Part shown: piece by piece, positions 7,859-45,185 of the stretch | Position numbering within the stretch: the first letter of the stretch is position 1 | Layout of the letters: every line of letters starts with the position of its first letter | Notes under the pieces: generated by a model | Databases searched by the model: none | What the model saw: only the letters and a program-made list of their open reading frames with translations | What the model was told of the DNA's origin: nothing | Translations under genes and position numbers: made by a program | Assembly (NCBI GenBank): GCA_964454295.1 | Contig: CAYVTV010000002.1 | Location: forward strand, 1-53,128 | Direction of reading: 5' to 3' | DNA: 53,128 bases | Origin: an uncultured Bacteroidaceae bacterium | GTDB taxonomy: Bacteria > Bacteroidota > Bacteroidia > Bacteroidales > GCA-2748055

Positions 7859-7996
7859 TGTAAAAGCCGGAAGCCTTGATCACATTCAGCCGGTAATTAT
7901 AACAATTTAGTACTTGTTTATTTATCAAAGGATTAACATCGGCTTGAGATGGTCAATCTAATCCGGCGCCAAGTGGTCAGGACACAGGCTTTTGCA
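7859..7996 (+). mobile_element. R1 MITE-like element, subfamily 1 (copy A)
   Basis: TGTAAAAGCCGGAAGCCTTGATCACATTCAGCCGG...CCGGCGCCAAGTGGTCAGGACACAGGCTTTTGCA. Near-identical to copies at 18794, 30585, 32376 and 38898. Confidence 0.75.
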
Positions 7997-8137
7997 CTAA
8001 ATTAAATTCGCAAAATAGTAATAACATAAAATCCCCCCTGGAAATCAGAGGGGATATCTTCTGGAATTCGCAAAGTATGATATACAGTAACTGCTATTGC
8101 TGTTACTGAAAACCCTGATCTGCTTAAGTCAATTATT

Positions 8138-9574
8138 TCACTCCGTTACAGCCCGGTAAGCATTTACCCGTCCATACCCATAATAAGGAGTGACTCCTTT
8201 CCCATCAATTTTGTCGGCAGTTGTTAGCAGTTTACGGGTAACATCTATCGGGTTCATTTGTCCGCCTTTTTTGCCAATGATTAATGCAGCCACTCCGGCC
8301 ACATGAGGTGCTGCCATACTTGTTCCGGACGCCCATGCGAAGCCTCCTCCACGATAGGTACTTATAACGTAATCGAAAGCACGAGCGGGATAACCCATAA
8401 CAGGATCCGGATAGTTACAATCATAGTCACCTCCTGGGGCAGCAAGTTCAATAAGTGATCTACCATAATTTGTATAACTGGCGGGAATGTCCAAAAAAGG
8501 ATTATTATTCCATTCGAGAATCCAGCATTGAGGAGCTGTTGCAGAAACGGTAATAACTTTTTGCAGCCCTCCAGGCAATACAAACCATGAAGCACTTCCA
8601 TCTAAATTATAACTGTCATTTCCGGCAGAAGTGACAATTACAGCCCCCTTTTTAGAAGCATAATCAACGGCACGTTGCTGTGCTAAAACGTAATATGTTA
8701 CATCAACAGGAGAGATCCATTCCGAACCTTCATAAAACCCACTCCTTTTCAGTGTAGTACCCAGGCTCATGTTAATCACGTCTGCACCATGGTCGGCAGC
8801 ATATATGATCCCGGAATTAACCCAGCTAAAATCCCCCGAGCCGCTGGAAGAAAGTACTTTAGCCGCCACAATTTCAGCTTTAGGTGCTACTCCGATAACT
8901 CCCCATCCGTTATGTGCTGCAGCAATAATACCCGCTACATGTGTACCATGTCCGTAACCATCATCAAATGAGGATTCATCAGGTACAAATGAAGCAGACA
9001 AAGCAAGATTCAGGTTTGCAACCAGATCGGGGTGATCGTCATCAATTCCTGTATCAAGAACAAAAATCCTTGCATTTTCGCCTTCGTATCCGGCATTCCA
9101 TGCCTCAGGTGCATTTATGGCATCCATACCCCATTGAAGCCAGAAACCAGGTTCATAATCACCTATACTTGGAGGATTTGCTTCGATTACATATTTAGGT
9201 GGTTTAATCCATTGAGCATTAAAATCGGGAACAACACCCTGTACCTGTGCAAGCTTAGAAACTTTGGCTTTGAAATCGGGGACAACTGGTTTTACAACAA
9301 CCACACCTATCTGAGGGATCGTCCTGACAATCTGACCGTATGTGGCGAGTTGAAATTCAAATCCAGCAGGAAGTGTTTCTGACCGGGTAATGACCATGTA
9401 GTTGTTTGCTTTTGCACCTTTCAAGGCAACGGGATCAGCATAAGAATCAGAATCAGACAAAAAAGGATTCTCAGGGTCAAGATAACTCTTCTGGCATCCG
9501 GAAATAAAGACCAGAAGAAAAATTGCCAGCAAAATTCTATCGAATTTTACACTGGAGAAGAAGAGAAATTTCAT
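8138..9574 (-). CDS. Subtilisin-like serine protease (peptidase S8) lipoprotein
   Basis: Catalytic triad motifs VLDTGIDDDHPDL, HGTHVAGIIAA and SGTSMAAPHVAGVAA are present. I prefer the start at comp. 9572-9574 (MKFLFFSS...ISGC lipobox) over the upstream ATG at 9631. Confidence 0.9.
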   Translation of the reverse strand: MKFLFFSSVKFDRILLAIFLLVFISGCQKSYLDPENPFLSDSDSYADPVALKGAKANNYMVITRSETLPAGFEFQLATYGQIVRTIPQIGVVVVKPVVPDFKAKVSKLAQVQGVVPDFNAQWIKPPKYVIEANPPSIGDYEPGFWLQWGMDAINAPEAWNAGYEGENARIFVLDTGIDDDHPDLVANLNLALSASFVPDESSFDDGYGHGTHVAGIIAAAHNGWGVIGVAPKAEIVAAKVLSSSGSGDFSWVNSGIIYAADHGADVINMSLGTTLKRSGFYEGSEWISPVDVTYYVLAQQRAVDYASKKGAVIVTSAGNDSYNLDGSASWFVLPGGLQKVITVSATAPQCWILEWNNNPFLDIPASYTNYGRSLIELAAPGGDYDCNYPDPVMGYPARAFDYVISTYRGGGFAWASGTSMAAPHVAGVAALIIGKKGGQMNPIDVTRKLLTTADKIDGKGVTPYYGYGRVNAYRAVTE

Positions 9575-9964
9575 CACTGGTTTGTGTTTCAGGTAAATGG
9601 GATGGTTTATTTTAACATATATAAATTTCAATCAAATTCTAAATGAGGCCAAATCTTTTTGACGAATACAGGATAAATAAAATAATTGAATAAATTAACA
9701 TAATAAGGCATGAGTGAGGTAGCAACGCCCCTGCCCATCATAATGTCTTAACGCCCAAAATAGCTGGACAAAATTTGAAGAATAAATTAAGTCTGATTGA
9801 TTTCGGAAACGCTGACCTGAAATTCTCAAAATATCCTTGAAAGTAATTTCATTTTTTATTCAAAGCTTTTGTCTATATTCTTGTCCTACTGATAATTGCA
9901 TAAGCTGCATGAGCTATTAATAAAAGGAATATAACTCTGAATACTTTTTGCCCCATTTTTTCAG

Positions 9965-11185
9965 TTAGTTAAAAATGAATTTTGCCTGCACCGGATAATG
10001 GTCCGATAAAAACCAGTTTTCCACTCCATTATTTACTTTTGCGTCAATACATTTTTCTATCATTGAGGGTGACACCAGAATATAGTCAATACGTTCAAGC
10101 CTCGCAACCAGTTGTTCGGTGGTTTCATTATTAAAAGTTCCCAAAACCCTGCCCGGGAAACTTCCCCGTTCGTTTATGCCGGTGGTATAATTTCTTGCAA
10201 CATCATATAATGGGAAAGCCAAAAAAGAAGCCATTACCGAAAAATCCAAATCATTCATGAAAACATTTCCGTTAATTCCTTTGTCGGAATTATTTTCGCG
10301 AAGTCGTTTCAATAAATAGCCATCTGAATCATACAAATGGGCATCGAAGGGAGAGTGGGCATTGAAATCGCCCAAAACAATGTACCTGGAATTTTCATTC
10401 TTTATTTTTTCCAGCTTTCGAAGAAGAATTTCAGCCTCTTCCATGCGACTTTTTATACTGCCAGGGTGAAGGTGAACCACCAAAAAATCAATTCCGGCGG
10501 TTTGGCAATGTAAGGCTCCGTGATGTAATCTGTTTTGTATTTTTTCTTTCAGATGGATTGGAAATTCGGAGGTCAGCCCAACTGAATAACCAGTGGTTTT
10601 CAAAATGACAGAATAGTTGTGTCCCCAGGATTCAGCATCTTCCTGCAACTTTTGAGGAGTATAAGCACAAAGTTCCTGAAGGGCAGCCACAGAAGGTTTA
10701 TGTTTTTTCATCCATTGCTGAAGTTTTTTACGTCTGACTGTATCTTTTCCCCAATCAAAGCCATTCCAAATGTTGTAAGTTATTACTTTCAGAGTATCAT
10801 TTCCCGGATCTTTCCGGTCGCGGGCCAATCCGGTAGCTCCTTTGGTATATTTTAAAATCACCGGATTATTATCTGCCTTTTTGAGTTCACGTCCAAAACT
10901 TACTTCCGGTCCGAAAAGGCCTTTGGTAAACCTGCCTGCCTGAGGTTGCATCCTGATCCATTTACCACCGGAACTTTCGTGGTCTACAAAAGTCCGGTTT
11001 AAACGAATTGATTCGTCGAGTTCTTTTCCTTCTTCCTGAAAATAAGCGGCATCGCCCATCCATCCCTGTGCCTTTGACTGACCGGCCCAGATAAAAAGAT
11101 CCAGTTTTTCCTGTGAACTTAAAGTAAAAGGAAGAAATAAAACTAAAAACAGGGTTTTGTAAAATAAAGTAGCAGGCTGTTGCAT
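9965..11185 (-). CDS. Chimeric protein: truncated SASA/CE6-like esterase N-terminus fused to an endonuclease/exonuclease/phosphatase (EEP) domain
   Basis: Residues ~25-130 (DLFIWAGQSKAQGW..FGPEVSFGRELKK..VILKYTKGATGL) align to the first half of the SASA protein at 15000..15875. The rest is EEP: ITYNIWNG, VAALQEL, VLGDFNAHSPFD, SDHYPV. Confidence 0.75.
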   Translation of the reverse strand: MQQPATLFYKTLFLVLFLPFTLSSQEKLDLFIWAGQSKAQGWMGDAAYFQEEGKELDESIRLNRTFVDHESSGGKWIRMQPQAGRFTKGLFGPEVSFGRELKKADNNPVILKYTKGATGLARDRKDPGNDTLKVITYNIWNGFDWGKDTVRRKKLQQWMKKHKPSVAALQELCAYTPQKLQEDAESWGHNYSVILKTTGYSVGLTSEFPIHLKEKIQNRLHHGALHCQTAGIDFLVVHLHPGSIKSRMEEAEILLRKLEKIKNENSRYIVLGDFNAHSPFDAHLYDSDGYLLKRLRENNSDKGINGNVFMNDLDFSVMASFLAFPLYDVARNYTTGINERGSFPGRVLGTFNNETTEQLVARLERIDYILVSPSMIEKCIDAKVNNGVENWFLSDHYPVQAKFIFN

Positions 11186-11198
11186 TATAACTCGTTTT

Positions 11199-44153: not shown

Positions 44154-44198
44154 ATAAACAGTTAACCCGATCGACTTTAATCATTAAAATTAGCACTT

Positions 44199-44711
44199 AT
44201 GAAAAAAACATTATTACTTATTGCATTTATTGCACTTACATGGGCTTGCCAAAAAGAAGTTCCCAAAGAATTGACTCTTGAACAGCGTCAGAATATAGCA
44301 GAGGAAATCAGGCAGTTCCAATACAATTGGCTGAAATCGTTGGAAGTATTCAATGAAGAAAACTTTAATGTTTTTCTATCGGGAATGGTACCAGGAGATA
44401 ATGAAGTTTGGATGGGAAATCCTGCAATGTGGTTAAACGAACTTACTTTCTTCCCAAATAATGAAGTTATAAATGAATACTGGCGACCTGAATTTGAAAA
44501 CCGCTCAAGTACAACATTTAAGATTGAAAGAGATTATGTAGCTGTTGCATCTCCAGAATATGCAGTCTATGTGGCACTTGGAACATTTTCAGTAACTGAC
44601 GCACAAGGAAATAATATGGGAGATATCCCAATGTCAAATACGAGTGTTATGGCAAAGACAAACAATGAATGGAAAGTTCTGCATATACACTATTCGTGGC
44701 AAAATGATTAA
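44199..44711 (+). CDS. SnoaL/DUF4440-like (NTF2-fold) lipoprotein, paralog 2
   Basis: Lipobox TWAC. Collinear with 41811..42290. Confidence 0.55.
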   Translation: MKKTLLLIAFIALTWACQKEVPKELTLEQRQNIAEEIRQFQYNWLKSLEVFNEENFNVFLSGMVPGDNEVWMGNPAMWLNELTFFPNNEVINEYWRPEFENRSSTTFKIERDYVAVASPEYAVYVALGTFSVTDAQGNNMGDIPMSNTSVMAKTNNEWKVLHIHYSWQND

Positions 44712-44863
44712 GCAAATCAACTGAGACAGACATGTAGCACCCCAACCAGGCTTAACCAAAGAGGCTACTGACTAGTTCAACAAGTACCTTGATCATTTAA
44801 ACTGAATAGAATATTGTTGACTTACACACTGTTAATCCTATTTATTAACCAAAAACCAAAACA

Positions 44864-45046
44864 ATGAGAAAATTAGCACATTTCAGTTTGATGATTCTGT
44901 TTTTATTCATTTCATGTGCAAAAAACATAAAAACGGAATTAACCGTTGAACAAAAAACCGCTATTGTAGCTGAAGTAGAAAAAGTTCATGATGATTTGAT
45001 TGCCAATCTTAGCAAATTGGATATTGATATATGGACAGAACCCTGG
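44864..45046 (+). pseudogene. SnoaL/DUF4440-like lipoprotein, paralog 3, truncated by R1
   Basis: MRKLAHFSLMILFLFISCAKNIKTELTVEQKTAIVAEVEKVHDDLIANLSKLDIDIW matches the first third of the paralogs. The frame then enters R1 copy L and stops at 45089-45091. Confidence 0.7.
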
Positions 45047-45185
45047 TGGAAAAGCCGGTGCTCCAGACCACTCTTAGCCGGGGAAGGTTGACCATGCCTC
45101 GCCGGACATAACTAATTGTTTTCAATCATTTTAGATTAATGGCATTCTGGCTGGCTGAATGTGGTCAATGCTTCCGGCTTTTGCA
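45047..45185 (-). mobile_element. R1 MITE-like element, subfamily 2 (copy L)
   Basis: TGGAAAAGCCGGTGCTCCAGACCAC..GGTTGACCATGCC..GAATGTGGTCAATGCTTCCGGCTTTTGCA. Confidence 0.7.

Follow-up and report, generated by a model that had tools for sequence, protein, structure and literature searches.

Short interspersed repeats without coding capacity, probably mobile now or until recently, in uncultured environmental Bacteroidales

We analysed a stretch of 53,128 nt from an uncultured Bacteroidaceae bacterium (contig CAYVTV010000002.1 of assembly GCA_964454295.1; in the following, the window), in which one repeat, here called R1, recurs many times. We find that short non-coding repeats of the R1 family are interspersed in the genomes of a clade of environmental, uncultured Bacteroidales, and that they are probably mobile now or were so until recently. 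R1 fits neither a canonical MITE (a miniature transposable element with inverted repeats) nor a canonical repetitive extragenic palindromic (REP) sequence. It is probably an element that is mobilised in trans, is read as double-stranded DNA by a protein and leaves no target-site duplication.

The terminus of R1, TGCAAAAGCCGG, is found with at most one mismatch at 20 sites in the window, compared to an expectation of 0.16. A previous reading of the sequence alone (the sequence-only reading) had divided the full-length copies into two subfamilies, and we built one profile for each and ran both on both strands of the window. Either profile alone finds all nine full-length copies (135–139 bp), exactly where they had been placed before (Table 1). 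Each profile also matches the copies of the other subfamily on the opposite strand. From these cross-strand matches and the alignment of the copies, we conclude that the supposed second subfamily with an inverse arrangement is R1 itself, reverse-complemented and more diverged. Among the partial copies that had been listed, those at 42296–42395, 28366–28441 and 41361–41420 are solid, whereas 27924, 36321 and 48539–48625 are minor fragments only. The isolated terminus noted at 6673 is real; it stands alone and abuts a different repeat, R3. The copies contain no conserved open reading frame (ORF) that spans them. Of the 27 TGACCAC heptamers in the window, 18 fall within R1-family sequence and 6 within a further repeat, D3, together 24.

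We described the anatomy of R1 from 129 full-length copies of 75 genomes, oriented as the + strand copies of the window. The left end reads A-N-TGCAAAAGCCGG, N5, TTGACCAC(ATT), N2-5, (G)GCCGG. It is followed by an AT-rich spacer of ~45 nt, whose conserved positions end in A-W-C-A-A-N4-T-T-A-A-C, and by a middle unit of CCGGC, N5, (A/G)TGGTCAAT, N5, TCCGGC. The outer unit and the right end read N5, GTGGTCA, N5, C(C/T)GGCTTTT(C/G)CA-N-T, with CCGGCTTTT(G/C)CA-N-T as the right terminus. Both right-hand units are inverted and have one CCGG in common. Written as an inward-facing pair, the ends are TGCAAAAGCCGG...CCGGCTTTTGCA, and the extreme ends are TGCA...T[G/C]CA. The 12-nt terminal inverted repeat seen in the window is conserved in the 129 copies, and a weak preference for A at -2 and for T at +2 lengthens it to 14 nt. 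The asymmetry of the three units and the alternation of fixed and variable blocks hold in this larger sample as well: the conserved blocks are ~90–99% invariant and the N5 blocks are near random. The centres of the blocks are ~11–12 bp apart, which is about one helical turn, so that all blocks face the same side of the helix. Internally deleted forms that retain both termini also occur in the sampled loci (numbered with the prefix L). One consists of the two termini only (L243:14921-14957, 37 nt) and another of the left arm and the right terminus (L001:96-152, 57 nt).

Within the spacer, the motif C80 A81 A82 N4 T87 T88 A89 is kept in 99–129 of the 129 copies, the number varying with the position. 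It fits the consensus of integration host factor (IHF) and HU, WATCAANNNNTTR, with exact agreement in 14 copies; this consensus is that of E. coli and may not hold in Bacteroidota. TTGACCACA agrees with the DnaA box, TTATCCACA, at 7/9 positions, but has A at position 4 where known DnaA boxes have T, and this likeness was set aside.

Evidence for mobility of R1 comes from the most similar copies. All seven non-orthologous pairs with at least 92% identity are intragenomic, and three of them lie 2–10 kb apart (window 30585/32376, L016/L066 and L068/L075). Pairs of at least 92% identity from different genomes all have identical flanks and are thus orthologous. In the young pairs, the similarity extends exactly from the initial TGCA to the final CA, and the flanks are unrelated. 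Copies tend to lie close to the sister copy to which they are most similar. Furthermore, the closest relative of an R1 copy is found in its own genome for 34 of 88 copies, despite the sparse sampling per genome. Such recent copies, made within one genome and bounded exactly by the termini, point to active copying, in agreement with the mobile element that the sequence-only reading had proposed.

That reading had called the element MITE-like, and here the label fails. Direct repeats of 2–9 nt at offsets 0–2 flank the 123 copies that we compared at about the frequency expected by chance, none is 5 nt or longer, and no target-site duplication of 3–9 nt was seen at any offset; the youngest copies also have no flanking target-site duplication. 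It is unlikely that TGCA is itself a palindromic target duplication, because the right end reads TCCA in ~70% of copies. At the insertion sites of the 123 copies, the only preference is a symmetric one, in which A is favoured at -2 and T is favoured at +2.

R1 is intergenic in 124 of 131 copies. Tandem spacers hold 48 copies, and convergent and divergent ones 22 each, in keeping with their shares of the spacer length (55:21:24%), and we thus find no bias for gene context. Neither is there a bias in the orientation of R1 relative to the neighbouring genes (29:19). Neighbouring copies have the same orientation in 22 cases and the opposite orientation in 14 (p = 0.24), hence no strand polarity. 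Following stop codons that relatives have in common, R1 can be present, absent, or differently placed or oriented. For instance, the window and L243 have in common the junction TAG-TGTAAA at the R1 copy at 25316, and the L133 ortholog of the gene at 23129–25315 has no R1 after its stop codon.

To survey the distribution of R1, we scanned one genome per GTDB species for an exact pattern of 20 bases and searched the resulting loci (826 kb) with the profiles. The pattern was found in at least 117 loci, nearly all of them from metagenome-assembled genomes (MAGs) of Bacteroidales, with fens, peat, soil, sediments and digesters as sources. A pattern match in Enterococcus had no profile match, and about one chance match is estimated for a pattern of this length. 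The profiles gave at least 174 non-overlapping matches, of which at least 122 are full-length, in at least 74 genomes. One locus, L057 (CAZTDW01), is 97.6% identical to the window at 45051–47637 and thus represents essentially the same species. R1 is hence a dispersed family of many genomes, as had been suspected, and not a local duplication; segmental duplication and chance are ruled out by the excess of termini, the matches in multiple genomes and the unrelated flanks. R1 also appears not to be a described family; the sequence-only reading had not recognised it as one. BLAST gave no true match in PLSDB plasmids, GenBank phages or IMG/VR, Rfam gave none, neither above the gathering score nor with the E limit relaxed to 5, and a literature search with the terminus sequences returned primer coincidences only.

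The abundance of R1 is patchy and lineage-specific. In the window, R1 occupies most intergenic spacers between 18 and 33 kb, with more copies at 38.9, 41.4, 42.3 and 45.0 kb. Around the acetyl-xylan-esterase-like (AXE) gene, R1 was found only in the 4 closest of 80 species (17 matches in 1.21 Mb). There was no R1 in 234 kb around the TreT orthologs of 15 species, and 575 kb of metagenome loci contained one R1 fragment; the metagenome relatives of the PQQ-like gene have at most 73% amino-acid identity and are not syntenic. Within R1-bearing genomes, ~167 kb of loci that had not been selected for R1 contained none, compared to ~11 copies expected from the density of extra copies in the selected loci (a hand calculation), and the copies are thus clustered. 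On contig CAVWPG010000011.1, at least five tandem units of 780 bp with one R1 each (L091:6365-7999, L098:14-1625) lie downstream of a fragment of an RHS/YD-repeat toxin gene.

The inverted arms of R1 raise the question of whether it acts as RNA. Single copies fold as a long interrupted hairpin (z = -3.7 to -4.1) with the termini AAAAGCCGG...CCGGCTTTT, so that R1 might be a structured RNA or a bidirectional terminator with hairpin ends A4-GCCGG...CCGGC-T4 on either strand. Such a fold is expected of every element whose termini are inverted repeats. We compared the folds of 48 copies from 42 genomes and, column by column, the pairing in the 129 copies. RNAalifold retained only the 5 pairs of GCCGG/CCGGC; the covariation term was -0.1, and none of the pairs is compensatory. 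In the full arm-to-arm structure, 75.8% of cells are paired compared to 76.2% in shuffles, there are no compensatory changes across the 25 conserved pairs of the three conserved helices, and pairing in the variable blocks amounts to 36% and 51%. The pairing of columns everywhere equals the expectation from column composition, and mutual information mirrors lineages only. Within one unit, pairing is confined to CCGG with CCGG, and for the N5 blocks it does not exceed chance. As covariation is absent, the symmetry of the arms reflects the conservation of motifs and not selection for base-pairing of RNA or single-stranded DNA. Considering also the lack of a match in Rfam and of a preference for gene ends or gene orientation, an RNA or terminator function is extremely improbable. 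A role as terminator or promoter was likewise rejected on account of the missing positional and orientation bias relative to genes. Blocks that are conserved without compensatory pairing favour recognition by a protein over an RNA or hairpin fold, and the architecture thereby looks as the sequence-only reading had judged it.

We thus propose, from the arrangement of the motifs, that a protein encoded elsewhere would bind R1 as double-stranded DNA, recognising the 12-nt termini and the three TTGACCA(C/T) motifs flanked by CCGG sites. Motifs and CCGG sites would alternate every ~11–12 bp on one face of the helix, possibly with a bend at the spacer motif CAA-N4-TTAAC. The protein would cut exactly at the R1 termini and reinsert the element nearby without a staggered cut of the target. 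The N5 spacers would not be contacted, and for this reason would drift and mark lineages. Afterwards, the copies could serve as portable homology or as rearrangement breakpoints.

The same architecture could also be kept by the host. R1 might be an architectural element comparable to the E. coli bacterial interspersed mosaic elements (BIMEs) and RIP elements, that is, an array of binding sites for an abundant DNA-binding protein with an HU/IHF-like bend, which selection would retain for organising or insulating the chromosome and which would spread only occasionally. In this case one would understand why the blocks are intact in copies that are only 64–76% identical overall, why the spacer motif is conserved and fits the consensus given above, why the blocks are spaced by about one helical turn, and why the local density at 18–33 kb is near one R1 per intergenic spacer. 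However, close relatives have no R1 around the same genes, so that it is dispensable there, the copies are clustered rather than even, recent intragenomic copies have exact ends, and no binding protein was identified. We therefore consider an architectural role unlikely.

Several points also weigh against a trans-mobilised element. A clean pair of filled and empty sites with homology on both sides was not recovered from the available strains and relatives, and the surroundings of the 185 sampled R1 copies (~8 kb read per genome) yielded neither an autonomous partner nor an enriched transposase. TG...CA inverted ends are usually the mark of DDE transposases, which duplicate their target, and such a duplication is missing from R1. 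Furthermore, the conservation of blocks in old copies could reflect a host function, and gene conversion between nearby copies could be behind some of the near-identical pairs. Concerning the empty site, look-ups of exact proteins returned only contigs that are 99.9–100% identical to the window, and no R1 has both of its sides conserved in a relative. A BLAST search with joined flanks among the sampled loci gave no match to an empty site.

We infer that R1 is mobilised in trans, and we searched for an enzyme that could do so. Scans of the window ORFs with Pfam and NCBIfam detected no transposase, integrase or recombinase, which confirms for transposases what had been stated before. The ORF families near R1 are host genes and incidental IS3 and IS66 insertion sequences (IS), and the latter two were rejected as movers of R1, as their ends differ from the R1 ends. 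The ORFs between R1 pairs are ordinary host genes, and the interiors of arm-only R1 matches have nothing in common. A cognate transposase was found neither in ~1.9 Mb searched for relatives of Y1 enzymes nor in 0.8 Mb searched for ORFs bounded by the element. With the E. coli RayT and IS200 TnpA sequences as Y1 queries, the R1 loci gave no match, and one RayT-like gene was found in an R1-free locus. The Y1 genes in ~3.1 Mb of sampled DNA (stretches of 8–22 kb per genome) have flanks other than R1, and other Y1 genes may exist elsewhere in these genomes.

The RayT-like family just mentioned is widespread in Bacteroidales. We examined its best 80 genomic loci, 9 of which belong to genomes with R1, and neither R1 nor D3 occurs in any of the 80. 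Instead, these genes are flanked by arrays of a different hairpin REP, GAACCGCGGAGCGGTTCCATCAAT, that occurs neither in the window nor in the 826 kb of R1 loci. R1 is thus not the REP of this RayT, and a RayT gene flanked by R1 termini, for which the sequence-only reading had suggested a search, is not among the 80 loci. The label REP/BIME-like fails on these flanks and on the missing hairpin of the unit. The RayT itself (~155 aa, PF01797; L254:17417-18155, and near position 4000 in L322-L339) has tandem REP hairpins upstream and inverted copies downstream, which is the classical REPtron arrangement.

When comparing R1 to known repeats, we find partial likenesses to several systems. As in MITEs (Correia/NEMIS of Neisseria and those of Porphyromonas gingivalis), R1 has a size within 100–200 bp, inverted ends, a non-coding and intergenic nature, many copies with unrelated flanks and lineage-specific bursts. 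In contrast to MITEs, R1 has no target-site duplication, and no parent IS with R1 ends was found in the sampled DNA. The bacterial MITEs of P. gingivalis, BrickBuilt, MITE239 and MITE464, have IS5-type ends, GAGACCTTTGCA, with TGCA inside (PMC4596501). TGCA is thus an inner motif there whereas it is outermost in R1, and R1 has three phased internal motif units.

R1 also resembles the E. coli BIME/RIP elements and the Pseudomonas REPINs (REP pairs that RayT mobilises), which are extragenic, high in copy number, free of target duplications and present in mosaic and truncated forms. BIME/RIP elements have inverted units around a conserved linker, as R1 does, and RIP also carries an IHF-consensus-like motif between the units. 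However, the R1 units are not self-complementary hairpins, in contrast to REP units, which are imperfect palindromes of 20–40 nt with a stem-loop each. The R1 consensus lacks the GTAG tag of REPs, and CGTC is only the majority reading of a variable block (57–78 of 129 copies per column). Unlike REPINs, R1 is not found beside RayT in the 9 RayT loci from R1-bearing genomes, where the genes are flanked by GAACCGCGGAGCGGTTCCATCAAT.

The families named TIRYT/TIRtron are repeats with terminal inverted repeats that are tied to RayT-like tyrosine transposases (Di Nocera et al. 2013, PMC3733652). Like R1, they are moderately abundant inverted-repeat families without a REP tag, and a Y1 enzyme would account for the missing target duplication of R1. 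Their Y1 gene is flanked by the repeats, which was not seen for R1 in ~3.1 Mb.

Multi-site ends are known from the TnsB sites of Tn7, L1-L3/R1-R3 of Mu, the terminal repeats of IS21 and the IS10 end with its IHF site. R1 has in common with them the TG...CA ends, the asymmetric arrangement of one plus two subterminal motifs and a bend site nearby. Multi-site transposons make target duplications of 4–9 bp and have large autonomous elements, and neither was found for R1. R1 also differs from the palindrome-associated elements derived from IS200/IS605 by its terminal inverted repeats and its lack of strand polarity, and from integron or Xer (pdif) cassettes, as no recombinase lies beside the arrays and the bracketed genes are on both strands.

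Synteny around R1 is frequently broken. The AXE gene (95%) and the KamA-like gene (95.5% nucleotide identity) are common to sister species (L242, L243), with a changed order and unrelated neighbours. More broadly, window 23061–25321 and 39110–41415 have 92–95.5% nucleotide identity to L242, L243, L244 and L133, where the orientation also differs. The homology stops at most 6 nt from an R1 terminus at four sites (25315–25321, 41356–41361, 45047–45051 and L242:9861), and the synteny of the window with L057 (97.6% identity) stops at the outer terminus of the copy at 45047..45185. The sequence past the AXE stop codon differs between relatives (Table 1). In contrast, an R1-free glycan-degradation operon at 8–18 kb, whose loci in relatives also have no R1, partly keeps its gene order (4–5 of 6 genes) at 87% amino-acid identity. 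As synteny breaks in the R1-rich regions and the R1-free operon is partly ordered, the R1-rich regions are prone to rearrangement. R1 may drive rearrangement or may merely accumulate in such regions. The best matches of TreT and the sulfatase have only 84–87% amino-acid identity, and the high identity of AXE and KamA-like genes without synteny could be due either to single-gene horizontal transfer or to extreme local scrambling.

These breaks allow another explanation, in which the R1 ends are recombination sites that bound exchangeable modules of single genes, like integron attC or plasmid pdif. Both in the window and in many loci, genes that stand singly or in pairs are indeed bracketed by R1, and the ~95% identical AXE and KamA-like genes in changed order, the ends of homology near R1 termini and the partly ordered R1-free operon would all be expected. 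However, there is no integrase or recombinase in the window or beside the arrays, the bracketing copies have any relative orientation and the bracketed genes lie on both strands. Breakpoints near R1 are partly expected, as R1 fills many spacers, and BLAST alignments stop trivially at diverged or inverted R1 copies. The transfer of modules is unproven, as the background divergence of these genomes is not measurable. Overall, this explanation is very doubtful, and we retain a trans-mobilised element as the preferred one.

Two further repeat families accompany R1. D3 is a repeat of ~125 nt with the core AAATCCGTCCTTCTTTGACCACTTCAGAAGAAGG, and it has TTGACCAC in common with R1. All 11 copies in the window lie on the + strand, and the orientation is uniform in all 10 loci with at least two copies (chance ~2^-25), whereas D3 has no constant orientation towards neighbouring genes (20 against 20). 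The polarity of D3 follows the chromosome strand, which is also seen in elements transposed as single-stranded DNA or in KOPS/Chi-like motifs. Its hairpin is not conserved. Four D3 copies lie in a region of 2 kb without long ORFs (34336–36349) that also contains an 80-aa fragment of a phage-type ORF6N protein (35067–35309), and this region may be a decayed mobile-element remnant. R3 is a repeat of ~190 nt with the ends GGAAATnCCGG...CCGGnATTTCC. At window 6673 and L243:17228, R3 directly follows the CTGAC of an R1 end, within its first motif of the TGACCAC type, and this position therefore suggests a nested insertion. In L243, the R1 unit continues with GACCAC past R3, a possible duplication of 3 nt.

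Taken together, R1, D3 and R3 might be the traces in DNA of a recombination system of environmental Bacteroidales that has not been described, makes no target-site duplication and moves single-gene modules, which we regard as quite improbable. The phased CCGG/TTGACCA blocks would then be recognised by a protein that cuts exactly at the TGCA ends and thereby moves or swaps the modules between copies. If true, this would account for the 95%-identical genes of sister species without synteny and for the breakpoints at R1 termini.

Lastly, we note some neighbouring genes and repeats of the window. Between the near-identical R1 copies at 30585 and 32376 lies a nucleotidyltransferase/HepT toxin–antitoxin pair of the MNT-HEPN type (31311–31968). 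Two paralogous modules of 1.1 kb (33448–34570 and 42967–44084, 71–89% identity) each encode a signal-peptide protein of ~291 aa that has no match in Pfam or NCBIfam; we rejected these ORFs as transposases, as they look like secreted hydrolases. A repeat of 78 nt (41709–41786 and 44095–44172) lies upstream of two SnoaL-like genes.

Table 1. Repeat copies and fragments in the window, with R3 copies and AXE-gene junctions in related loci.
Feature	Position	Strand	Basis and context
R1 full-length, 138 bp	7859..7996	+	nhmmer E=2e-47; between convergent genes
R1 full-length	18794..18931	+	profile; 94% identity to 30585 copy, flanks unrelated
R1 full-length, diverged lineage	19891..20025	-	profile and alignment
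R1 full-length	22892..23030	-	profile; upstream of KamA-like radical SAM gene 23129-25315
R1 full-length	25316..25454	-	profile; directly follows the stop codon of 23129-25315
R1 full-length	30585..30723	+	profile; 96% identity to 32376 copy, 1.8 kb apart, flanks unrelated
R1 full-length, recent sister of 30585	32376..32514	+	profile
R1 full-length, 4-nt spacer deletion	38898..39032	+	profile; in divergent intergenic region
R1 full-length	45047..45185	-	profile; ortholog L057:2584-2720 (95% identity)
R1 partial, outer and middle units with IHF-like spacer motif, without single-unit arm	28366..28441	-	
R1 right-arm remnant, CCGGC-N5-ATGATCAA-N5-CCGGCTTTTTC	41361..41420	+	13 nt past AXE gene stop
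R1 partial, profile positions 1-100 (left unit, spacer, middle unit), without outer right unit and terminus	42296..42395	+	5 nt past stop of 41811-42290
Solo R1 terminus, TGCAAAAGCCGG-TCATC-CTGAC	6673..6697	+	cut off by R3 (6690-6884)
Terminus-like 12-mer only	27924		
Single TTGACCAC unit	36321		
Degenerate GTGGTCA array	48539-48625		
D3 copies	19646-19784, 22679-22805, 32066-32199, 32521-32637, 34697-34829, 35379-35464, 35872-35997, 36081-36195, 38746-38885, 47794-47935, 51576-51715	+	
R3 copies	window 6690-6884, 18575-18765; L057:994-1125; L243:17228-17416		
Truncated R1	past AXE stop codon, window and L242	+	
Full R1 with extra unit	past AXE stop codon, L243	-	
R1 terminal fragment	past AXE stop codon, L259		
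R1 remnant	past AXE stop codon, L244		
Plain hairpin, without R1	past AXE stop codon, L245		

Small interspersed repeats have been well studied in Proteobacteria and in a few pathogens, and they are barely described in uncultured Bacteroidales, a large set of lineages from peat, soil and digesters. R1 mixes TG...CA inverted ends without target duplication and a BIME-like mosaic without hairpins or a link to RayT. For the comparison of genomes, a repeat of 139 bp every few kb breaks short-read MAG assemblies and should be masked or modelled. Once identified, the mover of R1 could represent a new mode of transposing short DNA, or a driver of the extreme scrambling of gene order described above.

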